From the NCBI GenBank assembly GCA_963842085.1, contig CAWJET010000001.1, positions 2,400,001 through 2,464,000 on the forward strand: 64,000 nucleotides of DNA, read 5' to 3'. The position numbers were made by a program, and so were the translations under genes. This document shows positions 730 through 48,262 of the stretch, piece by piece. The notes under the pieces are model-generated. The model worked only from the letters and a program-made list of their open reading frames with translations. It had not been told where the DNA came from and did not search any database. Source of the DNA: an uncultured delta proteobacterium. GTDB lineage: Bacteria; Desulfobacterota; Binatia; Binatales; Binataceae. Within the stretch, counting starts at the first letter, position 1. Every line of letters starts with the position of its first letter.

Positions 730-3189
730 ATGGCTCGGCTGGCACCGCAAGGAAAATACCTCTTCGACGGCGCGCAAAAATTTTACCTTCGCGGCGTTTC
801 CTATGGTCCGTTTGCTCTGAATTCCCGCGGCGAAAGATATCCCGAGCCCGAGCGCGCCGCCGCCGACTTCGCGCTGATGAGCCGGCTCGGCGCCAACGTG
901 ATTCGTCTTTACGTTCCACCGCCACCGTGGATGCTCGAGGAGGCGCAAAAGGCCGGACTGCGCATGATGCTCGGCATTCCGTGGCCCTTTCACATGGCGT
1001 TTCTGGACTCGCGCGACATGATGCGCGAAATCCGCGACGCGATCCGCAAAACAGTTCTCGAGACGCGCCAATTCGGCGAGACCATCGCCGCCTACAGCAT
1101 CGGCAACGAGATTCGATCGGATATCGTGCGCTGGCACGGGCCGCGCGCCGTCAGCCGCTTTCTCGCCGAACTCCGCGACCTCGGTAAGCAGATCGATCCC
1201 GGCGCGCTTTTCACCTACTCGAACTATCCGTCCGCAGAATACCTTGATCTGAGTTTTCTCGATTTCATTTCGTTCAATGTGTATCTGCATCGCGAAGAAG
1301 ACTTCCGCCGTTACCTGACGCATCTGATGGGACAAGCCGGCGAGTTGCCCTTGGTGCTCAGCGAATCCGGCATGGATACGATTCGCGAAGGCGAGGAGCA
1401 TCAAGCAGACCTCCTTTCATGGCAGTGCCGCGCGGCATTCGAGCTCGGCCTGTCCGGCTTCATCGTGTTCGCCTTCACCGACGAATGGCACACTGGCGGC
1501 GCCGAGATTACCGACTGGGCATTCGGACTGACCCGCCGCGATCGCTCGCCTAAACTTGCCTTCGACGCGGTCGCCAGAGTCTTCAGCGACCATCTGCCGC
1601 CTCCGCTTGCGGCCGCTCCCAAAGCGACCGTGGTGGTTGCCGCTTATAATGCGGCCTCGACGCTCGGCGAATGTCTCTCGTCGATTCGGGCGCTTAGCTA
1701 TCCGGACTACGAAACGATTGTCATCGATGACGGCTCGACCGACTCGACTTCCGAAATCGCCGGCCAGTCAGGAGTCCGCAAGATTCGCGTCGAGCACAAT
1801 GGCCTGGCCGCAGCGCGCAACGCAGGCGTCGATGCCGCTTCTAATGAAAGCGAAATCGTCGCGTTCATCGACGCCGATGCACGCGCCGATCGCGACTGGC
1901 TGTATCATCTGGTTGAGACGATCAAGCGCCGCGATGCGGCCGCGGCGGCCGGCCCGAATTTCGCTCCCGATCCACAATCCGAAGGCGCCGCGGCGATGGC
2001 CGCCGCGCCTGGCCTGCCGCGCGAGGTGCGGGCCGGCGACGACCGCCTCGCGCAACTGTGCGGATGCAATATGGCAATCACCAAGGCCGCGCTGCGGAAG
2101 GTCGGCCGCTTCGATCCGATGTTTACCGCCGCCGGCGACGACGTGGATCTTTCCTGGCGTCTCGCGGCGTCGAACGAAACGCTCGCGTACGCTCCGGGAG
2201 CGGTCGTGATTCACGAGCGCCGCGCGACGCTCGCTGCCTATCTCCGCCAGCAACGCGGCTACGGCATCGGCGAGGGCTTGCTGTTCCGCAAATATCCACT
2301 TCGCATCGCGGACCAGGACGCAATGTACGCAGGCCCGTCATGGATCGGTTCGCTCCTCGGCGGGGCACGCATTTACTACGGCGCTTTCGGTCGCGGCCTC
2401 TTTCAGACGGTTTATTCTGCGGGTAGCTCGTACGCCGATCTGCCACTGACTATTCAATGGATCGGACTGTCGCTGATCTTTCTTATCCTCGGCGCCATCA
2501 ACCGCTTGCTGGGCGTGCTTGGCGCAGGTGGAATCGGGCTCTCAATATTGACCGCCGCGGCGAGAGCAGCATCCGCGCCCCTGCCGCGCGCGCATTCCGG
2601 ACCAGCGGCACGAATCTATCTATGGATCGTCAATTTGCTCGGCCCGCCGGTTCGCAGCCTCGCGCGCGAGCGTGTCAAATGGCGATTCGAACCCGCCGGT
2701 GCCAGTGCCGAGCGCAACGGTCAGATCAAATTACACGGCCAGATAGGATTGGTCGCGTCCGCAGGCGTCGCGAAGATCGAGTCCGCGACGATCCTCGCCG
2801 CTATCCGCAACGCACTGATTCGCCGCGGCGTCGTCGTCGCCGAGACCGACGGCTTCCAGTCCTATGATCTCGAGCTGGTCGTTGCGCCCATGATTCGCGT
2901 GCCGATAAACGCGCTGCGGAGCGACTCCACAATCGCACTGCTTTGGCGCATTCGATCGGCGCCGCGACGTGCGCTGATCGCCGCGGCAATCAGTCTGCTT
3001 GTATTGCTGGCCGCGGGATTCTCGCTACGCGCGGCGATCCTCCTCGTAACGGGCGCCGCGATGGGAGTAGGGATTTTCGCGCTCACGCGTGCGCGGCGCA
3101 TTCCCGCGATCATCGCCGCCTGCGCCGCCGAAGTCGCTGGCTCGCTTGGAATCTCAGTCGCAGCGCGCCCCGAAGGCGAAACTCGATGA
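730..3189 (+). CDS. Fusion of GH-A clan (GH2/GH5-like) TIM barrel, GT2 glycosyltransferase and C-terminal TM helices
   Basis: IGNEI acid/base and LSESG nucleophile motifs; GT2 motifs DDGS, DAD, GDDVD, QQRGY; hydrophobic C-terminus. Confidence 0.85.
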   Translation: MARLAPQGKYLFDGAQKFYLRGVSYGPFALNSRGERYPEPERAAADFALMSRLGANVIRLYVPPPPWMLEEAQKAGLRMMLGIPWPFHMAFLDSRDMMREIRDAIRKTVLETRQFGETIAAYSIGNEIRSDIVRWHGPRAVSRFLAELRDLGKQIDPGALFTYSNYPSAEYLDLSFLDFISFNVYLHREEDFRRYLTHLMGQAGELPLVLSESGMDTIREGEEHQADLLSWQCRAAFELGLSGFIVFAFTDEWHTGGAEITDWAFGLTRRDRSPKLAFDAVARVFSDHLPPPLAAAPKATVVVAAYNAASTLGECLSSIRALSYPDYETIVIDDGSTDSTSEIAGQSGVRKIRVEHNGLAAARNAGVDAASNESEIVAFIDADARADRDWLYHLVETIKRRDAAAAAGPNFAPDPQSEGAAAMAAAPGLPREVRAGDDRLAQLCGCNMAITKAALRKVGRFDPMFTAAGDDVDLSWRLAASNETLAYAPGAVVIHERRATLAAYLRQQRGYGIGEGLLFRKYPLRIADQDAMYAGPSWIGSLLGGARIYYGAFGRGLFQTVYSAGSSYADLPLTIQWIGLSLIFLILGAINRLLGVLGAGGIGLSILTAAARAASAPLPRAHSGPAARIYLWIVNLLGPPVRSLARERVKWRFEPAGASAERNGQIKLHGQIGLVASAGVAKIESATILAAIRNALIRRGVVVAETDGFQSYDLELVVAPMIRVPINALRSDSTIALLWRIRSAPRRALIAAAISLLVLLAAGFSLRAAILLVTGAAMGVGIFALTRARRIPAIIAACAAEVAGSLGISVAARPEGETR

Positions 3190-4964
3190 GCACGCTCGAA
3201 CTCTACGGCCACGCGATCCGCAGGATGCGCCCGCATCTCGGCCGTCTCGCAATCGCCATCGCCGGCGTGCTGCTCGCCTCCGCGACCGAAGTCCTCAAGC
3301 CGTGGCCGCTCAAGATTGTAATCGACAACGTGCTGCGCGGCGCGCCGCTCACGAGCTCCTGGATTCCGCCGATGCCGCGCGCCGAGCTTCTCATCGCGGC
3401 GTGCGTCAGCCTCGTCATCCTGTACGCGCTGCTCGGCCTGCTCAACGTCATGACCAACTACGTCACCATCTCGATCGGCCAGCGCATGGTCAACGAGTTG
3501 CGCGCGCGCCTGTTTGACCACCTGCAGCGCCTCTCGCTCTCATTCCATCGCCGCCGCGAAGTCGGCGACCTGATGGTGCGCATCACCTACGACACCTACT
3601 CGATTCAAACGATCGCGATGAACGGCTTCTTTCCGGTCTTGTCGTCGCTGATCCTGCTCGGTGGCATGTTCGTCGTGATGATCAAGATGGACGCGATACT
3701 GACGCTCGTCGCGCTCGCGATCATCCCGCTGCTGATTCTTCTGATCATGTCGATTAGCGGCCGCATCGACGCCATCGCCGGCGGCGCGCGCATCAAGGAG
3801 AGCCGTCTGTTCACCGTCGCGCAGAGCGCACTCGCCGCCATTCACGTGGTGCAGGCCTTCACGCGCGAGGGCGAGTCCTACCGCGAGTTCGTCGAGTCGA
3901 GCAGCGCGAGCCTGAACGCGACGCTCCGCCTGTACACGCTGCAAACGCTCTACGCCGGCGCGGTCGGCGTGTTGATCGCGTGCGGCACCGCGGTCGTGAT
4001 TTACCTGGGCGCGGAGCACGTCCTCGACGGCCGCCTCACGATCGGCGACCTGATCGTTTTCACCACTTATCTTGCCTCGCTCTACGCGCCGGTGAATCAG
4101 ATCTCCCAGACCTACGGACAGATCGAGGGCGCCAAGGCGGGGCTCCGGCGATGCCTCGAATTGCTCGCGATCGATCCCGAAATCAAGGATCGTGCGGGCG
4201 CGCAGGCGCTCGGCCGCGCGCGCGGCGAGGTCGAATTCGACAATGTCGTATTCGGCTACGAACCCGGCCGAACGGTCCTCAAGGGGATCAGCTTCAAGGC
4301 GTCGCCCGGCGAGACTATCGCGATCGTCGGTCCGAGCGGTTCCGGAAAAACCACGATGGCCAGTCTGCTCGCGCGCTTTTACGAACCGCAGAGCGGCGCG
4401 ATCAAGATTGACGGCAACGACACCCGCTACCTGACCCTCGATTCGCTTCGCGGCAACATCGGCATGGTTCTGCAACCGCCGCTCGTGCTTGGCGACACGC
4501 TGCGCGTCAACGTCGCGTTCGGGAAGCCTGCCGTTGACGACGCGAACGTGCTCCGCGCGATCGAGATGGCGCGTCTCGGACCGGTGCTCGCCAAGCTGCC
4601 GGCCGGCCTCGACGAAGTGATCGGGCAGGGCGGTCACAGTCTCTCCGAGGGCGAGGCGCAGCGCGTGACGATCGCGCGCGCGCTGCTGAAAGACGCGCCG
4701 ATTCTGATTATGGACGAGCCGACCAGCGCGCTCGACGCCGAGACCGAATCGATGGTGCTGGCCGCCGTGCGCGAAGCGATGCGCGGGCGCACCACGCTCG
4801 TGATCGCGCACCGGCTTTCGACCGTTCAGAATGCCGATCGGATACTGGTGCTGCGCGACGGGGCAATCGTCGAGCATGGATCGTTCGACGAATTGCTGGC
4901 TCGCGGCGGTTTCTTCAGCTACCTCTACAACATCCAGGCGTGGAGTCGCGAAGCCGCGGGCTAG
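3186..4964 (+). CDS. ABC exporter, fused TMD and ATPase (MsbA/NdvA-like)
   Basis: ATGA overlap with upstream gene; Walker A GPSGSGKT, LSEGE signature, ILIMDE, IAHRLST. Confidence 0.92.
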   Translation: MSTLELYGHAIRRMRPHLGRLAIAIAGVLLASATEVLKPWPLKIVIDNVLRGAPLTSSWIPPMPRAELLIAACVSLVILYALLGLLNVMTNYVTISIGQRMVNELRARLFDHLQRLSLSFHRRREVGDLMVRITYDTYSIQTIAMNGFFPVLSSLILLGGMFVVMIKMDAILTLVALAIIPLLILLIMSISGRIDAIAGGARIKESRLFTVAQSALAAIHVVQAFTREGESYREFVESSSASLNATLRLYTLQTLYAGAVGVLIACGTAVVIYLGAEHVLDGRLTIGDLIVFTTYLASLYAPVNQISQTYGQIEGAKAGLRRCLELLAIDPEIKDRAGAQALGRARGEVEFDNVVFGYEPGRTVLKGISFKASPGETIAIVGPSGSGKTTMASLLARFYEPQSGAIKIDGNDTRYLTLDSLRGNIGMVLQPPLVLGDTLRVNVAFGKPAVDDANVLRAIEMARLGPVLAKLPAGLDEVIGQGGHSLSEGEAQRVTIARALLKDAPILIMDEPTSALDAETESMVLAAVREAMRGRTTLVIAHRLSTVQNADRILVLRDGAIVEHGSFDELLARGGFFSYLYNIQAWSREAAG

Positions 4965-17772: not shown

Positions 17773-18753
17773 ATGGACATCACTATCGACGCGCCCACCG
17801 GCACCCGGGAGAAGTTCTCCTTCACCGATTTTTTTCTTTCTCATAAAGGCGATCTGACGCTCGCTTTTTCGGCCTTGGTGTATCTCGTGAGCCTCGCCGC
17901 CCTGATGTTCACGCGTTGGCGGAGCTCGTCCGAGATTGCGGTCTCGATGGCGGAGGCGGCGCTGATCGGCGGCCTGTGCGATTACATCGCGCTCAAGATG
18001 ATCTTCGAGCGGCGATGGTACCTGCCCAACTCCGGCGTGCTGCCGCGCAATCGGGTCAAGCTGATCGACGGAATCGCCGCCACGATAGAGAACGAATGGC
18101 TCACGCCTCAGATGATCGGGCGCAAGCTCGGCGAGATGGATCTCGTCGGACGCCTCGGCACGTATCTGCAGGAGCTGAAGTTGAACGATGTGCTGGGGCA
18201 GGCCGGGCTCGAGCGAATAATCAGCCAGGCCATCGATTACCTCGATTCACCCGAGAAACGCGAGCGCCTTGAAAAAGTCCTCAAGCGGATGCTGCCGAAG
18301 ACGGTCACGCGAATCTACGCGGTGATGAGCCGGTTCGGCGCGGAGTCGATCGGCGCGCGGATCGCGGCTAACTTGCGCAAGCGGCTGCCCGAGCTGCAGA
18401 ACGATCCCGAGCTGCGTGACACGATCGAAAGCGCGATTCACGAGTTCGGGGCTCAACTTCACGATCCCGAGAGCTACGCGAATCAATTTGCGCAGCGATT
18501 GATAGACAACCTGGTGCGCAGGACGGTCGAAGCAAGCCGCGGGCAGATCACGCAGATGGTGCGGGAGAACCTGGCGCGGCTGTCCGACGATCAGATCAGG
18601 ATTCAGATTGAATCGAAGACGCGCACGCATCTGGACTGGATTCGCGTCAACGGCGGCCTGTTCGGCGCGTTCTTCGGCCTGCTGTTCGCGCTATCGCGAA
18701 TCCTGTCGCACAACGGCCCCGCAATCCTCGCGCATTTTCACATCGCGATGTGA
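17773..18753 (+). CDS. DUF445-family membrane protein
   Basis: AEAALIGGLCDYIAL, GVLPRNR, HLDWIRVNGGLFG. Confidence 0.85.
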   Translation: MDITIDAPTGTREKFSFTDFFLSHKGDLTLAFSALVYLVSLAALMFTRWRSSSEIAVSMAEAALIGGLCDYIALKMIFERRWYLPNSGVLPRNRVKLIDGIAATIENEWLTPQMIGRKLGEMDLVGRLGTYLQELKLNDVLGQAGLERIISQAIDYLDSPEKRERLEKVLKRMLPKTVTRIYAVMSRFGAESIGARIAANLRKRLPELQNDPELRDTIESAIHEFGAQLHDPESYANQFAQRLIDNLVRRTVEASRGQITQMVRENLARLSDDQIRIQIESKTRTHLDWIRVNGGLFGAFFGLLFALSRILSHNGPAILAHFHIAM

Positions 18754-18768
18754 GCGGAACTAATCGTA

Positions 18769-18832
18769 GTGAAACCCCACCTGGGTTTCACACTTCCTTG
18801 GGCAGGGGTGACCCCTGCACCCGGTGTTAAAA
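18769..18832 (+). repeat. palindromic repeat family B, copy 2 (short form)
   Basis: GTGAAACCC-cacct-GGGTTTCAC, ACTTCCTTGG, GCAGGGG-TGA-CCCCTGCACCCGGTGTTAAAA. Confidence 0.85.
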
Positions 18833-23221: not shown

Positions 23222-23226
23222 GCGCT

Positions 23227-23279
23227 CCCTCTGATCCCCGCCCGTTGATTCAGGCGAGAGGTGAGGTGAGGGTTCTGCG
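23227..23279 (+). repeat. repeat family A, solitary degenerate copy
   Basis: ctctgatCCCCGCCCGTTgattcAGGCGAGAGGTGAGGTGAGGGTTCTGCG aligns with the DUF559 IR; lies between convergent genes. Confidence 0.8.
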
Positions 23280-23311
23280 CTGCATGAGCAATCTCCGCGC
23301 GATTCTTCTAC

Positions 23312-28763: not shown

Positions 28764-28913
28764 GTCGCCCACGACGCACTTGGCAATCACTAGATTGCGC
28801 TGGAGCCATGGCAGCGGCTACGACGACGCTACGGAAACTGAATGCGGGCTTAATGCGCATGTAACTGAGGTGGGGAGGATGCGGTGATGGGTGGGGGAGC
28901 GATAGATTTGGAG

Positions 28914-31697
28914 ATGGATTCGAAGTCAAAAGTAACCGACCGCGCACCGGCCCCCAGTGCTGCTCCGGTCAATTCTGCCGCGCGCGGCCGGGGCGTCGTG
29001 CTCGAGCGCTTCTTCACCCAGGCCGGCGTCGATCCATATTCCCAGGTCGAGTGGGATCTCCGCAGCGCCGTCATCTCGGGCGAAGACGGCCGCGTGGTCT
29101 TCGAGCAGAAAGACGTCGAGGTGCCGCGAGCGTGGTCGCAAACCGCCACCAACGTCGTCGTCTCGAAATATTTCCGCGGCCCGCTCGGCACGCCGCGGCG
29201 CGAAACCAGCGTCCGCCAACTCATCTCACGCGTCGTCGACACCATCACCGGATGGGGTGACAAGCAGGGTTACTTCGCCGACGCCGACGCGCGCGAGACT
29301 TTCCACGCCGAGCTCAAGTACCTGCTCCTGAATCAAAAGGCCTCGTTCAACAGCCCCGTCTATTTCAACGTCGGCATCGAAGCCAAGCCGCAGTGCTCGG
29401 CATGCTTTATCCTCAAGGTCGACGACAGCATGGACTCGATCCTGAGCTGGTACCGCAACGAGGGCATGATCTTCAAAGGCGGCTCGGGCGCCGGCGTGAA
29501 CCTGTCGGCGCTGCGCTCATGCCGCGAGAAGCTCTCGTCGGGCGGGACTGCGTCGGGCCCGTTGTCGTTCATGAAGGCCGCCGACGCGAGCGCCGGCGTG
29601 ATCAAGTCGGGCGGCAAGACGCGGCGCGCGGCCAAGATGGTCGTGCTCAACGCCGACCATCCCGACATCGTCGATTTCATCAAGTGCAAAGTCGAAGAGG
29701 AGCGCAAGGCGTGGGCGCTGATCGAAGCCGGCTATGACTCCTCGCTCGACGGCCCCGCTTACGGCTCCGTGTTCTTCCAGAACGCGAACAATTCCGTGCG
29801 CGCCACCGACGGCTTCATGCAGGCAGTCCTCGACGACGCCCAATGGCAGACGCACTTCGTCAAGTCCGGCGAAGTCGCCGAGACCCGGCCCGCGCGCAAG
29901 ATACTCCACCTGATCGCCGAGGCTGCCCACGCCTGCGGCGACCCCGGGATGCAATTCGACACCACCATCAACCTCTGGCACACCTGCCCCGCCAGCGGGC
30001 GCATCAACGCGTCGAATCCGTGCAGCGAGTACATGCATCTCGACAACTCGGCCTGCAATCTCGCCTCGCTCAACCTGATGAAGTTCATCGACGAGCGCGG
30101 CGAGTTCGACGTGCGCGCATTCCGCCACGCAGTCGACGTGATGATCACGGCGCAGGATATCGTGGTCGACAATTCCTCGTATCCGACCGACGAGATCGCC
30201 AGGAACGCGAGCGCGTTCCGCGAGCTCGGCCTTGGCTACGCAAACCTCGGCGCGCTGCTGATGGCGCTCGGGATGCCGTACGACTCCGAGCAGGGCCGCA
30301 GCTACGCCGCCGCGATTACCGCGTTGATGACGGGCGAGGCCTATCTGCAGTCGGCGCGCATCGCGGAGCAGATGGGTCCGTTCGCCGGCTACGCGCCCAA
30401 TCGCGAGCCGATGCTGAAAGTGATCGAGCGCCACAAATCGTACGCGTACAAGCTCGATCCGTCGTACGTCCCGCTCGACATGCTGCGCGCCGCGCGCGAC
30501 TCCTGGGACGACGCGCTCAAGCTCGGCACCGCGGCCGGCTACCGCAACTCGCAGGCCACGGTGATCGCGCCGACCGGCACGATCGCCTTCATGATGGATT
30601 GCGACACCACCGGCATCGAGCCCGACATCGCGCTCATCAAGTACAAAAAGCTGGTCGGCGGCGGGATGCTGAAAATTGTCAACGGCACCGTCCCGCGCGC
30701 GCTCAAGCGGCTGGGCTACGACTCGAAGGAAGTCCAGGAGATCGTCGAATACCTCGATGAGAACGAAACGATTGAAGGCGCGCCGCAACTCGCCGACGCG
30801 CATCTCGCCGTCTTCGATTGCGCTTTCAAGCCGCGCGCCGGCGCCCGCACCATTCACTACAACGGCCACCTCAAGATGATGGGCGCGGTGCAGCCGTTCA
30901 TCTCGGGCGCGATTTCCAAGACCATCAACATGCCCGCGGAAGCGACTGTGGACGAAGTCGCCGAGGCTTACGTCACCGCCTGGAAGCTCGGGCTGAAGGC
31001 GGTCGCGATTTACCGCGACGGCTCCAAGCGCACGCAGCCGCTCAACACCGGCAAGAAGGACCTCGAGAAAGCGGTGGAAGCGGTCGCGTCGATCGCGGCG
31101 TCCGACGACCGGATGCAGCGACGCAAGCTGCCCGACGAGCGCAAATCGATCACGCACAAGTTCGATATCGCCGGCCACGAAGGCTACATCACGGTCGGCA
31201 TGTACGAGGACGGCACGCCGGGCGAAATTTTCGTCACGATGTCCAAGCAGGGCTCGACCATCTCGGGCCTGATGGACTCCTTCGCCACCGCGATTTCGTT
31301 CGCGCTGCAATACGGCGTCCCGCTGCAGTTCCTGGTGGACAAATTTTCGCACATGCGCTTCGAGCCGTCGGGCTTCACCAAGAATCCGCAGATTCCGTAC
31401 GCCAAGTCGATCGTCGACTACCTGTTCCGCTGGATGGCGTCGAAATTCCTCGACGAAGAAGCGAAGCGAGAAGTCGGAATCGTCGAGTCGGAAAAAACGC
31501 TGTCAGCAAAATCAGACGCGGCGGCTGTCGCGATGGCTCCAGTGGCGAGTTTGCGCGACGGCAAGGACGGCGGCATCCGCCAGGCGTTCATCAACCAGGC
31601 CGACGCGCCGCCATGCCCCGACTGCGGCAGCATAATGGTGCGCAACGGCGCCTGCTACAAATGCATGAACTGCGGCACCACCAGCGGGTGCTCATGA
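28914..31697 (+). CDS. nrdJ: class II (B12-dependent) ribonucleotide reductase
   Basis: FNSP, QCSACFI, SNPCSEY, ACNLASLN, APTGT, SGAISKT, C-terminal CPDC/CMNC zinc finger. Confidence 0.97.
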   Translation: MDSKSKVTDRAPAPSAAPVNSAARGRGVVLERFFTQAGVDPYSQVEWDLRSAVISGEDGRVVFEQKDVEVPRAWSQTATNVVVSKYFRGPLGTPRRETSVRQLISRVVDTITGWGDKQGYFADADARETFHAELKYLLLNQKASFNSPVYFNVGIEAKPQCSACFILKVDDSMDSILSWYRNEGMIFKGGSGAGVNLSALRSCREKLSSGGTASGPLSFMKAADASAGVIKSGGKTRRAAKMVVLNADHPDIVDFIKCKVEEERKAWALIEAGYDSSLDGPAYGSVFFQNANNSVRATDGFMQAVLDDAQWQTHFVKSGEVAETRPARKILHLIAEAAHACGDPGMQFDTTINLWHTCPASGRINASNPCSEYMHLDNSACNLASLNLMKFIDERGEFDVRAFRHAVDVMITAQDIVVDNSSYPTDEIARNASAFRELGLGYANLGALLMALGMPYDSEQGRSYAAAITALMTGEAYLQSARIAEQMGPFAGYAPNREPMLKVIERHKSYAYKLDPSYVPLDMLRAARDSWDDALKLGTAAGYRNSQATVIAPTGTIAFMMDCDTTGIEPDIALIKYKKLVGGGMLKIVNGTVPRALKRLGYDSKEVQEIVEYLDENETIEGAPQLADAHLAVFDCAFKPRAGARTIHYNGHLKMMGAVQPFISGAISKTINMPAEATVDEVAEAYVTAWKLGLKAVAIYRDGSKRTQPLNTGKKDLEKAVEAVASIAASDDRMQRRKLPDERKSITHKFDIAGHEGYITVGMYEDGTPGEIFVTMSKQGSTISGLMDSFATAISFALQYGVPLQFLVDKFSHMRFEPSGFTKNPQIPYAKSIVDYLFRWMASKFLDEEAKREVGIVESEKTLSAKSDAAAVAMAPVASLRDGKDGGIRQAFINQADAPPCPDCGSIMVRNGACYKCMNCGTTSGCS

Positions 31698-31712
31698 AGA
31701 AGGAGTCTTAAG

Positions 31713-31850
31713 GGGTCCCGGAGAATAGGAGGGGAGGCGTTCGAGAGACTGGCGATGATGCGGGGGAGGCGGACGGGTAAGCAGCTACCGGCGGCGGCAA
31801 AGATTCAGCCAGTCCTCGGAGAAATGGGGATGACGAATTCTCCGGGACCC
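31713..31850. ncRNA. candidate structured RNA (nested stems)
   Basis: 14-bp perfect IR 31713-26/31837-50 encloses stem CGAG-a-GACTGGC/GCCAGTC-CTCG. Confidence 0.4.
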
Positions 31851-31918
31851 ACATACTAAAGAAGGCGCGATCGGACTCGCGCCCTTACAGGATGTGGTGG
31901 GGCGGCGGATGTGGTGAC

Positions 31919-31960
31919 GGCAGGGGGCTGGGAGCAATCCCAGCCCCCAAATTGCCTTTC
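31919..31960 (+). terminator. terminator-like hairpin
   Basis: GGGGGCTGGGA-GCAA-TCCCAGCCCCC, followed by a short T run. Confidence 0.6.
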
Positions 31961-31973
31961 TGCGATCTTCTTA

Positions 31974-32503
31974 ATGCCTCGCCCGTTACTTCACGGGAGA
32001 GGTTAGGTGAGGGTTCTGCGGTTCACCACCATTTCATGTCACGCGCAAAAGTGAGATTGTCCCATCGATGGCCGACCTCACGCCGCCGCGACTCCTTCCA
32101 AAAGTACCACTCGCTCGTTCTCGTGCACTGCGTCGCGATTCCACCGAAGCTGTGAAGCGACTGTGGGCGATTCTGCAGAATCGACAACTCGACGGCAGGA
32201 AGTTTCGTCGTCAGGTTGCGCTCGATTCGTACATCGTAGATTTCTGCTGCAGCGCGGCGAGGTTGATCGTCGAAATCGATGGCGAACAGCATGCTGACAA
32301 ACGCAAGCGCTACGACGACGCACGTACGCGAGAACTGGAAGCGCGCGGTTTCAGAGTGATCAGATTCTGGAACTACGAAGTGTTGCAGGGCGCTGAGGGC
32401 GTGGTCGAGGAGATTCGACGCCTATTGTCTGACGCTGGCCGATCACCACGATGATCCGCAGTACCCTCACCTAACCTCTCCCGTAAACTAACGGGCGAGG
32501 CAT
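31974..32503 (+). mobile_element. putative DUF559 element bounded by 52-bp inverted repeats (family A)
   Basis: 31974-32025 and 32452-32503 are inverted repeats at 48/52 identity, each containing an internal hairpin. Confidence 0.7.
32068..32454 (+). CDS. DUF559 / Vsr-like endonuclease
   Basis: RALRRDST, LW, FRRQ, YIVDF, IVEIDGEQH, GFRVIRFWN. Confidence 0.92.
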   Translation: MADLTPPRLLPKVPLARSRALRRDSTEAVKRLWAILQNRQLDGRKFRRQVALDSYIVDFCCSAARLIVEIDGEQHADKRKRYDDARTRELEARGFRVIRFWNYEVLQGAEGVVEEIRRLLSDAGRSPR

Positions 32504-32517
32504 CAGAAAGAGACCAC

Positions 32518-32994
32518 ATGGCGATGAAATGGCCGGCGGGATTTGAACCTGACAAATCATCGGTTTGCGCGCGCAACGAAATTGCGATTGCTGCGCCGCC
32601 GGAGCGCGTTTGGCGATGGCTCATTCGCGCCGTCAAGTGGCCTGAGTGGTACAGCAACAGCGCCAACGTTAATTTCATTCGCGGCAATCCGCCCGACCTT
32701 GCGCCCGGCACCGAATTCAAATGGAAGACCTTTGGCGCGACCGTCGCCAGCCGCGTGATCGTCTTCGATCCGCCGCATGAACTCGGATGGGACGCGCATG
32801 GCGTGTTGAGCGCCTATCACGGCTGGCTTATCGAGCCGGACGGCGGCGGCGGATGCCGCGTCGTCACCGAGGAATGCCAGAACGGCCTCGTGCCGAAACT
32901 TGCATGGTGGTATCTGCGCCCGATGCTCGAGCGCGGGCATCAGAACTGGGTCGAGAGCCTCAAACGCGTTGCCGAAGGCGGAGATCCGTCGTAG
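32518..32994 (+). CDS. SRPBCC/polyketide cyclase family protein
   Basis: IAAPPERVW, WPEW, LKRVAE. Confidence 0.8.
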   Translation: MAMKWPAGFEPDKSSVCARNEIAIAAPPERVWRWLIRAVKWPEWYSNSANVNFIRGNPPDLAPGTEFKWKTFGATVASRVIVFDPPHELGWDAHGVLSAYHGWLIEPDGGGGCRVVTEECQNGLVPKLAWWYLRPMLERGHQNWVESLKRVAEGGDPS

Positions 32995-38913: not shown

Positions 38914-38959
38914 TTTCTGTCTCCTCTCCCTGCAAGGGAGAGGATGAAGGTGAGGGTCC
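38914..38959 (+). repeat. repeat family A, solitary copy
   Basis: tttctgtctCCTCTCCCT-gca-AGGGAGAGGatgaaGGTGAGGGT between convergent phaC and lutA. Confidence 0.75.
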
Positions 38960-39014
38960 GATTGCAGCGCGGCTTCTCTTTCGCGCGCGATTAAAGACTC
39001 TGTCTTCCGACCGC

Positions 39015-45958: not shown

Positions 45959-48262
45959 TCAGTGCCCCCAGGAGCGGGCGCAGCTTAAGATGTCGATCGG
46001 CGTGCCGTCCTCGACTGCGCGGTACTTTTGCCAGAAGCTCGAATCGATTTGCTTGAGCGCCGGCGGCTCGCGCCGGCGCCATCGATTGCACGCTCCCGGG
46101 CCGCCGTTGTAGGCCGCATACGCCGAGCGCGCGAGATGGCTGGCTACCGGCACAGGATCGAACTTCGGTTGCGCGGCCGACGCATACTGCATCATGCGCG
46201 CCAGGATCTCGCACCCCGCGCCCGCGTTGTAGAGCACGTCCCACTTGAGGCGCTCGATATCGTAAAACCCGCGCCACACGTGCTTGTTCACCTGCATCAG
46301 GCCGATGTCGCCGGTCGCGGACTCGAGCCATCGCAGGCGCGCGCCGTCCAACACGAATTGGCGCCAGCAGCTTTCCTCCCATGCGGTGCTGAGCACGAGC
46401 GTTACGTAAGTCTGTGAATTGTTGGCGTCGATGGCGGCGGTGCTGAGTTGGTGCTCGGCGCTGAGATTGAGCAGCAGGCCCATGTCGTGGCGATAGGAGT
46501 CGGCGTTCGCTTCGGTCACGACGAGATGGTAGAGGCGGCCGGCGACATCCTGCAGGCGAGGCATCAGTGCGGTGTCGTCCTCGGCAGCGTCGGCCTCTTG
46601 CGGTGAGAGGAGGTTTAGCAACCTAACCCCTAACCCAGGGGCAGCAGAACCCGCACCTGCCTCGCTACGCGAGGTCGCCTCTCCCGTAAAGTAACAGGCG
46701 AGGTAATTTCGGAACATTCGCGCGGAAGGCCCGGGCGTCGGGAGAATTGATCCGCGCGGCGACGGGACCGCCGCCGGCGTGCTTGCGCTGCTTGAACCTG
46801 GCAACGCGCCGCCCGCGGAGGAGGGAGGGATGTTTTCTTCTTCGATTGGATGGTGGCTTGCGGTCGGCACCGCCGCGGTCGGCACCGCCGCGGGCGGCTC
46901 CGCCGCGGGCGGCTCCGGGAATGCGAAGAGCTTTTTCAGGTCACGATCTTCGCTGTAGTTGAACTGAAGCGGATCGCCGGTGGCAGTGGGCGCCATGATA
47001 TGCGCGAGGCGGCGAAGATCGGCGGCCGAGATGCGCATCCCAAGCGCGGGCGCCGCCTGATCGAGCGCAAACAGCGCGTCGCCGGCCGAGATGAACGACA
47101 TGAATTCGAGCGCGCTCGGCCCCAGCATCCCGCGCCGCGCGGCGGCGCGGACCGCGTCGTGGAGCTGGCGCCATTCGTCGAGGAACAAAACGCGCACCGG
47201 ATCGGGCCCCGCCGCGGCGGGCGGATTGTTCAGCGCCTGGACGAGGCGATAGCGGCTGTCGAGCAGGATTTGCAGCAACTGGTCGCGGAATTGATGGTCG
47301 CCGACCGCGTCGCCGAGATGCTTGATCGAGAAAACCAGAAACGCGTCCCATTGATCGAGCGTGTCCTGGAAGGCTTTCAGCTCGGCCGGCCTGGGCGAGG
47401 CCGCGGCGCCGGGAATCGCGGTCGGAGTCGGGAAGTCAGGCACCGTCATCACGAGCGTGATGCGGACGCCGTCGTCGAGCGCGGCGATGTCCCGCTCGGC
47501 GGTCAGACTTGCGATCGCGGCGCGGACGCGCTCGGCGGCGTCGGGCGGAATCGCATCGGCGGCCATCGCGGCGAGCTGCTGAACCGCGGGATTGAGATCG
47601 TAGGAAAAGTCGTCGAGCCGCGGAATGAGATAGCTCTTGATGAGGTCGAAGCCCCGGCTGACGAGCTCCGTTTCCTGATGGGCCGTATCGTAGAGATTCA
47701 AATCGGTGAAGTGAAATTTGAGCTGGAGGCCGGGCGCGATGTACGGGACGCCGAGCGCCTCGACGATGCCGCTCCATTGTATGGCGTTGAGGCATTGCGA
47801 TCCCATCGCGACGCCCAGCGCGAGGCTGTTGGCGGTTTCGAGCCGCACCGTTGCGGCGCCGCCGGCGGTGGCGCGTGAGAACTCGGGATTTTCGGCGTAG
47901 AGATACTGGCAATCGCTGAGGCCCTTCCAAAGCTCGGCGCGCCCGCCGGGCGCGGTGTAGAGCTTGCGCTTGAGCGCTTCGCGCAGCGTGATGTAGTCGA
48001 TGGTGAGCGGAATGCGCACTTGCGATGCGCGCGCGGGAGCGGAGTGGCCGAGGAAGATTGACATCGCGACGGCGATAATTGTCCACAACCTAACTGCTGA
48101 GGTCTTTGGTGCAACCTGAGCGGCCGCGTTACGCGAGGCCGCCTCTCCCCTAAAATAGTGGGCGAGGTAATCGCGGAAAAATCGCGGACAGAGGAGGCGC
48201 GGCGAGTCGGATCTAACGAGCATGGTCATGAATTGCCGGTTTTGGTTACGAAGGCGACTCAA
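45959..48262 (-). CDS. exported protein with C-terminal lytic transglycosylase (SLT) domain (start uncertain)
   Basis: AWEES, GLMQVN, AAYNGG; signal-like stretch LWTIIAVAMSIFLGHSAPARA. Confidence 0.82.
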   Translation of the reverse strand: MSRLRNQNRQFMTMLVRSDSPRLLCPRFFRDYLAHYFRGEAASRNAAAQVAPKTSAVRLWTIIAVAMSIFLGHSAPARASQVRIPLTIDYITLREALKRKLYTAPGGRAELWKGLSDCQYLYAENPEFSRATAGGAATVRLETANSLALGVAMGSQCLNAIQWSGIVEALGVPYIAPGLQLKFHFTDLNLYDTAHQETELVSRGFDLIKSYLIPRLDDFSYDLNPAVQQLAAMAADAIPPDAAERVRAAIASLTAERDIAALDDGVRITLVMTVPDFPTPTAIPGAAASPRPAELKAFQDTLDQWDAFLVFSIKHLGDAVGDHQFRDQLLQILLDSRYRLVQALNNPPAAAGPDPVRVLFLDEWRQLHDAVRAAARRGMLGPSALEFMSFISAGDALFALDQAAPALGMRISAADLRRLAHIMAPTATGDPLQFNYSEDRDLKKLFAFPEPPAAEPPAAVPTAAVPTASHHPIEEENIPPSSAGGALPGSSSASTPAAVPSPRGSILPTPGPSARMFRNYLACYFTGEATSRSEAGAGSAAPGLGVRLLNLLSPQEADAAEDDTALMPRLQDVAGRLYHLVVTEANADSYRHDMGLLLNLSAEHQLSTAAIDANNSQTYVTLVLSTAWEESCWRQFVLDGARLRWLESATGDIGLMQVNKHVWRGFYDIERLKWDVLYNAGAGCEILARMMQYASAAQPKFDPVPVASHLARSAYAAYNGGPGACNRWRRREPPALKQIDSSFWQKYRAVEDGTPIDILSCARSWGH
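46619..46714 (-). repeat. repeat family A copy, in frame within the SLT gene
   Basis: + strand GCAGAACCCGCACCT-[gcctcgctacgcgaggtcg]-CCTCTCCCGTAAAGTAACAGGCGAGG matches the DUF559 IR; encodes FRNYLACYFTGEATSRSEAGAGSAAPGLGVRL. Confidence 0.8.
46861..46917. repeat. 15-bp tandem repeat, about 3.8 units
   Basis: cggtcggcaccgccg x2, cgggcggctccgccg x1.8; encodes EPPAAEPPAAVPTAAVPT linker. Confidence 0.85.
48086..48178 (-). repeat. repeat family A copy at the 5' end of the SLT gene
   Basis: Paralogous to 46619-46714; reads FRDYLAHYFRGEAASRNAAAQVAPKTSAVRL in the SLT frame. Confidence 0.75.

Follow-up and report, generated by a model that had tools for sequence, protein, structure and literature searches.

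A DUF559 nuclease gene between inverted BoxC/PIT/TM triplex repeats: a candidate REP/RAYT-like cassette in Binataceae and other bacteria

REP-associated tyrosine transposases (RAYTs) are HUH Y1 transposases acting on GTAG-tagged hairpins, the repetitive extragenic palindromic (REP) repeats, in single-stranded DNA. A comparable layout, built around a different predicted enzyme, is described here for a 64-kb stretch of the genome of an uncultured member of the Binataceae (contig CAWJET010000001.1, positions 2,400,001 to 2,464,000; hereafter the window), in which a small gene of the DUF559/YcjD family lies at 31966-32511 between two inverted copies of a short structured repeat. To judge from its architecture this repeat is not new but is the known BoxC/PIT/TM intrastrand-triplex motif, a relationship missed by the preliminary description of this DNA. 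The account of the motif by Holder et al. (2015) gives 23 copies in Escherichia coli K-12, with five inverted pairs and with the type carrying one mismatched triplet as the most frequent, and reports the motif in more than 260 genomes; a single strand of the E. coli motif forms a triplex in vitro, and the motif is tied there to local instability and repair (PMC4666352). In the text of that article the authors state that they never met transposase or integrase remnants near the motif, and ycjD, DUF559 and endonuclease have no occurrence in its main text (PMC4666352). On the protein side, YcjD has been linked to Vsr through profile comparison (PMC1189080).

A repeat search of the window delimited two inverted arms of 60 nt each, at 31966-32025 (plus strand) and 32452-32511 (minus strand), 426 nt apart and complementary at 53 of 60 positions (88%). 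Both arms were also recovered by a motif finder, by pattern match, by folding and by profile search. The left arm comprises, all on the plus strand, an outer extension (31966-31976), a hairpin with one G.A stem mismatch (31977-32002), a second loop, TTA (32003-32005), a mirror G block, GGTGAGGG (32006-32013), and an inner extension up to 32025; the right arm has the mirror orientation, and the G-rich mirror block of each arm faces the DUF559 gene. This gene (32068..32454, plus strand; an open reading frame (ORF) with a Pfam match) encodes 128 aa, and the first base of its stop codon TGA, 32452, is also the first base of the right arm. The tight enclosure of the gene by inverted repeats, which the preliminary description had put at 48 of 52 complementary positions with the right arm on the stop codon, was confirmed in full. 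With a hairpin plus a mirror block as criterion, the motif finder returned three matches in the window, at 31977-32013, 32464-32500 and 38922-38955, against one match in ten shuffles. A fold computation for single-stranded DNA, which models hairpins only, gave the predicted hairpin for each arm, its stem interrupted by one mismatch (-8.7 kcal/mol, z about -2.1).

In every copy the same elements follow one another: a pyrimidine arm, a loop, a purine arm, a second, short loop (loop 2, TTA) and finally a G block in mirror image of the purine arm. Of 379 hairpins, 140 have a third block that agrees perfectly with their own arm; when the arm of another locus is substituted, the number is 29.

The 128-aa protein matches Pfam DUF559 (PF04480) with E=1.1e-38 and 131.9 bits against a gathering cut-off of 20.6, this being its sole Pfam domain, and more weakly the NCBIfam YcjD model. 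Against the PDB, a profile of the family matched 3HRL, an 'endonuclease-like protein' (E=4e-38, profile residues 25-124), and 3R3P, the catalytic domain of the homing endonuclease I-Bth0305I (E=4e-4). Since 3HRL, which we take to be a Neisseria gonorrhoeae protein, is a close homologue, the fold of the DUF559 family is solved; the entry itself carries no function. Residues D58, E69, D71, H75 and D83 are invariant in 32 aligned sequences, and in the 3R3P alignment the invariant residues fall on positions equated with D51, H64, H69 and D97 of Vsr (PMC3239194). With these residues on known catalytic positions the active site looks intact, and the protein is predicted to be a Vsr-fold nuclease of the EDxHD-type PD-(D/E)XK class. 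Vsr is the very-short-patch repair endonuclease, which cuts one strand on the 5' side of the T of T:G mismatches. The earlier designation of the DUF559 protein as Vsr-like stands for the fold family and for the catalytic residues as judged through I-Bth0305I, but by sequence the protein is nearer to I-Bth0305I than to Vsr: the Pfam scan gave no Vsr at E<=0.01 and the PDB profile search no Vsr chain at E<=10. Ratios of nonsynonymous to synonymous substitution rates (dN/dS) of 0.11-0.20, relocated pairs included, indicate that the gene is under purifying selection, and one copy (Mesorhizobium locus L048) is frameshifted. Searches of PADLOC and PHROGs gave weak matches only (E>=3e-4). A phage collection held two records at 36-40% identity, and a plasmid collection held 45, all below 60% identity and many of them megaplasmids or mislabelled chromosomes. 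A comparison of the DUF559 tree with phylum was considered as evidence of transfer and was not used, the tree resting on 112 columns with 47 of 75 inner branches open and leaving out three rows with in-frame stops (L021, L062 and L064); phylum labels were weakly clustered on it (16 changes against a shuffled mean of 17.8).

Relatives of the gene were picked by protein similarity alone, in a protein-alignment scan of species-representative genomes, and 80 loci were examined out of at least 578 confirmed stretches. They share 42-59% identity with the window protein, none exceeding 59% among the matches listed, and span Alpha- and Gammaproteobacteria, Chloroflexota, Binatota, Bacteroidota, Planctomycetota, Melainabacteria, a lineage of the candidate phyla radiation (CPR) and others. 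A plain alignment of upstream against downstream flanks brought out the same motif in most loci. Layout was scored with the motif finder in the 70 loci having at least 150 nt on both sides: the arrangement of the window, with the motif upstream in + and downstream in - orientation, was found at 51, a downstream copy alone at seven, an upstream copy alone at three, other arrangements at five and no motif at four. Within 300 nt of the gene there were 200 motifs in 49.8 kb (4.0/kb), against 117 in the remaining 1,200 kb (0.098/kb), an enrichment of about 41-fold, and the co-occurrence of repeat and DUF559 across genomes, raised as a question by the preliminary description, is thereby answered in the affirmative. 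Among the 120 closest protein homologues, 110 carry the RFWN landmark, 37 of these with long C-terminal tails, and in 30 of the 37 the tail is the translated 3' repeat. A plasmid copy from the cyanobacterium Picosynechococcus has short-armed motifs in the same arrangement, as read by eye. At the N. gonorrhoeae locus the strict finder placed four motifs 150-570 nt downstream and found no canonical repeat bracket around the gene; a motif-like piece upstream was recognized by eye. Together, these comparisons indicate that the pairing of gene and repeat is conserved across bacterial phyla. No paper linking DUF559 to the BoxC/PIT/TM motif was found in the literature searched, whose coverage did not extend to subscription journals; it is the DUF559 link that appears to be new here, the triplex repeat being already known.

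Comparison of related loci showed the unit at different places. In two Binataceae (L037 and L057), 87% identity is confined to the repeat-gene-repeat unit between unrelated flanks, and homology begins about 19 nt ahead of the hairpin on the left and extends 3 nt past that on the right. In Mesorhizobium, where the gene lies between two motif doublets, the unit of L024 occupies a site unrelated to that of L015 and L048. In sphingomonads, one site (B) is filled in L020, L063, L073 and L056 (the filled sequence was read for L020 and L073) and corresponds in L005 to an 86-nt intergenic stretch without the motif; another site (A) is filled in L005, where directly repeated copies of the carA 3' end (52 bp, 51/52) bracket the insertion; L056 has it filled too, at a different position, and in L020 it is empty. 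The window unit has to its left a conserved stretch and GC hairpin (31896..31949, plus strand) located 3' of a class II ribonucleotide reductase (RNR) gene (28884..31697, plus strand). Because this flank is also present at L049, a syntenic Binataceae locus whose RNR protein is 80% identical, the insertion site of the window unit is fixed. In L049 this site is occupied as well, immediately past the shared stretch and hairpin, by a unit whose gene is inverted and only 48% identical and whose motifs are of the long type with perfect stems; the far flank is not syntenic, and in the window it holds a SRPBCC/polyketide-cyclase-like gene (32518..32994, plus strand) that starts 7 nt past the right arm. 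This occupation of the same site by a divergent cassette recurs in the sphingomonads, L020 and L073 having DUF559 proteins only 50% identical between flanks 76-80% identical in DNA. These alignments show a cassette that ends sharply where the hairpins have their outer foot, that is found at sites without homology to each other, and that some syntenic sites have and others lack. The unit thus behaves as a discrete relocating cassette. No transposase domain was detected in the 14 ORFs scanned beside the repeats of the window. A transposon with terminal inverted repeats, or a miniature inverted-repeat transposable element, was considered and rejected: the inverted repeats are present, but without a flanking direct repeat or a transposase domain in the window.

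Two of the sphingomonad loci have further peculiarities. The 10-kb locus L056 contains a second DUF559 cassette (3040-3545), in which a motif of another subtype is nested in the interval from the gene to the right repeat. At L005 266-1075 a vapBC-like toxin-antitoxin pair lies between carB and a duplicated carB 5' end; this is the second case, in that intergenic region, of an insertion framed by duplicated host DNA.

The window holds six copies of the repeat, four clearly intergenic and two, the long ones, within an open frame of 767 aa. When up to three mismatches are allowed, the hairpin pattern CCTCGCCCGT-N6-ACGGGAGAGG matches at 23236(+), 31977(+), 32475(-), 46678(-) and 48142(-); being palindromic, it matches both arms and the 46678 copy on the opposite strand too, and the total of eight matches compares with 0.01 expected and was reached in 0 of 100 shuffles. 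An nhmmer profile from three copies recovered the other three (E=8e-7, 1e-3 and 0.047) and no seventh credible copy in the window, the remaining rows (E 1.2-2.7) being opposite-strand echoes and a 16-nt match at 46553-46568. The four further copies listed in the preliminary description (23227, 38914, 46619 and 48086) were all recovered by these profile and pattern searches and are solo members of the same repeat family as the arms. The first, of short type with a degenerate hairpin, lies 5 nt past the stop codon of a HEAT-repeat gene (23226..23284, plus strand); the second, with a perfect 10-bp stem, lies directly past the stop codon of a PhaC-like gene (38914..38972, plus strand), and an 87-nt stretch there matches L007, a locus from a metagenome-assembled genome (MAG) of Binatus, at 81%. 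The third is a long composite (46619..46714, minus strand) with a G.A-mismatch hairpin, a mini-hairpin in loop 2, a G block and a GGGGTTAGGTT tail, and the fourth is a second, degenerate long composite in the same orientation (48086..48179, minus strand). Folding z values were 0.02 for the copy at 23226 and -1.4 for that at 48080, both degenerate. The stem mismatch noted earlier in both arms and in the last two copies was found in all of them (hairpins at 46678 and 48142), and the 23236 copy has that G plus further mismatches.

In the long copies (46619-46714 and 48086-48179) a second, truncated motif ends the composite in GGGGTTAGGTT, and the same composite occurs at L007 5610-5775. The open frame that contains them (45959-48262, minus strand) has a C-terminal SLT transglycosylase domain and a constant phase of third-position GC content (GC3), and reads in frame through both copies, which are translated into a near-identical peptide twice; it is either one gene with in-frame repeat insertions or two genes in the same phase. 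A 67-nt intergenic stretch with two small hairpins (18757-18821) is 87% identical to L007 5481-5547, which in that locus is some 70 nt away from a long repeat copy. It is without a match in Rfam, and the Rfam scan of the window gave no family at the gathering score, only a chance-level tmRNA fragment near 18650-18720.

Elsewhere, long variants of the motif (in L003, L011, L015, L024, L025 and L053) have small stable hairpins of differing sequence in place of loop 2, several of them closing on GAA or GAAA loops, so that structure appears conserved and sequence not. In other taxa the purine arm and mirror block together give four G3 tracts spaced by 3 nt, a pattern that is of the G-quadruplex type as well; in the window (31977-32013) the tracts are G2-G3. 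Tandem arrays of the repeat occur at L032 10634-11323, with alternating + and - copies at spacings of 46 and 34 nt, and at L043 10776-11628, with same-strand copies about 160 nt apart.

We favour a functional partnership in which the nuclease would act on the motif, with binding, cleavage and movement as putative activities. With a probability of roughly 0.6, window positions 31966-32511 would represent a compact cassette consisting of a Vsr-fold nuclease and its cognate pair of triplex repeats, REP/RAYT-like in kind, with putative functions in cutting and mobilization. The nuclease would recognize the repeat, which probably is then folded into a hairpin or triplex in supercoiled or single-stranded DNA, and would nick or cut beside it, and host repair, recombination or replication may then copy, move or exchange repeat and cassette, in analogy with REPs and REPINs and their RAYT, or with a homing endonuclease that uses the repeats both as target and as homology arms. 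Because a PD-(D/E)XK hydrolase cannot itself join strands, integration would have to rely on the host. The bolder proposal, that the triplex repeats are non-autonomous partners of a new class of minimal selfish element, the sole protein of which, the Vsr-fold DUF559/YcjD enzyme, cuts beside the folded hairpin or triplex and drives the spread, exchange and local instability of repeats and cassette alike, is advanced more tentatively, as somewhat less than an even bet.

Several observations weigh against the cassette reading. The sample is limited to the 80 loci examined of at least 578 confirmed relatives, and among the 70 fully flanked loci the four without any motif are joined by another 15 that are off the layout. 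The preliminary description had called for empty sites and target duplications to be sought. A motif-free empty site does exist in L005; duplication of host sequence was detected at one of 69 loci tested (L005), high scores elsewhere being due to two-sided motif doublets, and no direct repeat, that is, no target duplication, flanks the window cassette in the repeat search. No DUF559-like sequence was found near 114 of the 117 distant motifs, of which 23 are solo; 28 adjacent pairs are '+-' doublets with their G blocks facing each other. These doublets were considered as internal-deletion derivatives of the local cassette, an origin rejected on finding similarity confined to the motif and unrelated spacers (12 loci scored). 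The dispersed repeats nevertheless tend to match the subtype flanking the DUF559 gene of the same genome: 58 of 116 distant motifs share their purine arm with local DUF559-flanking motifs, against a permuted mean of 16.3 and a maximum of 46 (0/1000 reach 58), in a test in which relatedness and the presence of several motifs at one locus are confounding factors. In Rhodanobacteraceae the DUF559 gene is syntenic and diverges like its flanks, and in E. coli ycjD is at one fixed locus; both single-locus genes look vertical and domesticated, and not actively mobile. Finally, the motif is present in all 5426 complete E. coli genomes (at a median of 16 places) and the K-12-like fabI-ycjD-sapF region in 3346 of them, about 2080 being without it; the repeats therefore persist without ycjD.

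In E. coli K-12 itself, the 3' end of ycjD is overlaid by motif-like sequence, and some 170 nt farther downstream there is a complete motif that has the same G mismatch. Part of the 3' end of ycjD is found again about 100 nt past the gene, as a duplicated fragment that precedes a complete repeat copy (L081 6330-6470). In one E. coli strain (hit H1) the ycjD locus has IS1 and two DUF559 annotations. In E. coli TCM3e1 (L082 12264-20160) a TetR-regulated RND efflux operon and an MFS transporter are in place of the ycjD region, the breakpoint of homology to K-12 being about 36 nt away from the repeat.

Within the frame of a partnership, the strongest rival is homing into motif pairs, a domesticated repair nuclease being weaker. 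If the motifs belonged to the host or to older elements spreading by some other route, DUF559 would be a selfish homing gene whose enzyme cuts pairs of motifs without the gene and which gene conversion then copies in; the inverted motifs would serve as homology arms, and either orientation would therefore be possible. We regard this as unlikely, although the family profile does match I-Bth0305I and not Vsr, divergent cassettes occupy the same site, once in opposite orientation, the 28 distant '+-' doublets have the geometry of empty sites, and repeats persist in E. coli genomes devoid of ycjD. What speaks against it is the sphingomonad L005, in which one empty site is without any motif and in which the insertion lies at a motif-free position inside the 3' end of carA and is accompanied by a 52-bp duplication that gene conversion would not yield. 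Moreover, the doublet spacers are unrelated to the ends of the cassette, and the window protein is without the extra DNA-binding domain described for I-Bth0305I (PMC3239194).

Alternatively, DUF559 could be a domesticated host nuclease for the structure-specific processing of hairpins or triplexes, for instance at stalled forks, with the repeats reflecting autoregulation or local accumulation. Long-term synteny in Rhodanobacteraceae and the fixed E. coli locus would agree with this, as would purifying selection on the gene, the usually single-copy 20-kb stretches around the genes (one extra copy across 80 loci) and the tie of the motif to local instability and repair made by Holder et al. (PMC4666352). 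A housekeeping role is nonetheless distinctly improbable in view of the relocation of the cassette with sharp ends at the repeats, its presence, absence and replacement at syntenic sites and the atypical GC3 of the window gene (0.59, against 0.65-0.87 in four named neighbours and 0.57-0.84 in the other ORFs measured). The gene is also dispensable, since about 2080 of 5426 E. coli genomes are without the K-12-like region.

The mechanism put forward in the preliminary description, in which a Vsr-like nickase recognizes the single stem mismatch and thereby spreads the repeat, had in its favour a G-opposite-A variant (CCTCGCCC / GGGAGAGG) common to both arms, to two solo copies, to L007 and L068 and to the motif beside ycjD, as well as the one-mismatch type being the commonest in E. 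coli K-12 (PMC4666352). However, 183 of the 200 motifs flanking DUF559 at the 80 loci have perfect 8-bp stems and five are of the G.A type; as the mismatch is not general, a Vsr-like nickase reading it is left without comparative support. Perfect stems are likewise found in the window copy at 38914 and in the syntenic L049 cassette, Vsr has no detectable sequence similarity to the protein, and there is no neighbouring cytosine methyltransferase. This mechanism thus seems very improbable. The recurrence of the G.A variant in the window, in the Binatus locus L007, in L068 and in E. coli is curious, yet it does not make the mismatch a recognition element.

That ordinary terminators or regulatory hairpins should flank the gene by chance, as the positions of the solo copies 23226 and 38914 just past stop codons could suggest, deserves almost no credence, being contradicted by the approximately 41-fold enrichment in fixed orientation across phyla, by a conserved mirror G block unneeded for termination, by a promoter and terminator scan of 31650-32650 that gave no promoter and no terminator in either arm (its sole terminator-like site was an unrelated hairpin at 31862-31885, minus strand) and by earlier work, cited by Holder et al., in which the motif had no terminator or promoter activity (PMC4666352).

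If the cassette reading is true, two long-standing orphans would explain each other: DUF559/YcjD, a very widespread family of solved structure and unassigned function, and the BoxC/PIT/TM motif, conserved across phyla and with its origin and spread unexplained, whose discoverers sought a mobility gene and, in the text of their article, reported none (PMC4666352). The pairing points to the DUF559 enzyme as the probable long-missing partner of the repeat. It would also provide a protein-based explanation for the genome instability reported around the motifs, and a PD-(D/E)XK hydrolase with a triplex-capable fold would amount to a second, independent invention of the REP/RAYT lifestyle. The question is directly testable in E. 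coli K-12, with its one ycjD gene and 23 motifs (PMC4666352).

Compared with the described systems, the repeats of the window are closest to BoxC/PIT/TM, with a near-identical core, multiple copies, sometimes in inverted pairs, and a common one-mismatch variant, but the published account treats the motif as an orphan whereas here it is tied to a specific gene (PMC4666352). Unlike the motif described, the Binatia copies are extended by conserved sequence on the outer (TTCTGAT) and the inner side (TTCTGCGG), and they include long variants that have a mini-hairpin in loop 2. The protein shares with Vsr the fold family and the catalytic residues, as judged through I-Bth0305I (PMC3239194), and differs from it in the lack of a detectable sequence match and of an adjacent Dcm-type cytosine-5 methyltransferase, its neighbours being the RNR and SRPBCC genes. 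I-Bth0305I, an EDxHD enzyme with a homologous catalytic domain and the same five acidic and histidine positions, is a precedent for a selfish element using a Vsr-fold nuclease; it has NUMOD/HTH modules for DNA binding at its N terminus and resides in a group I intron of a phage (PMC3239194); the window protein, by contrast, has 128 aa and the DUF559 domain only, and is free-standing, repeat-bracketed and intergenic. With REP/REPIN-RAYT systems the cassette has in common the enclosure of one small nuclease gene by a short structured repeat, present there as inverted copies or doublets and elsewhere in the genome as scattered singlets and doublets, as well as a long vertical residence in some lineages. 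The REP/RAYT-like layout claimed initially is therefore retained for a gene between inverted, dispersed hairpin copies, but not for the enzyme, since the Pfam scan shows no HUH Y1 transposase and the DUF559 protein, unlike a RAYT, is a predicted PD-(D/E)XK Vsr-fold hydrolase. The GTAG foot is absent from both window arms, whose sequences were read, and the core of the triplex repeat, unlike the species-specific REP repeats, is conserved across phyla.

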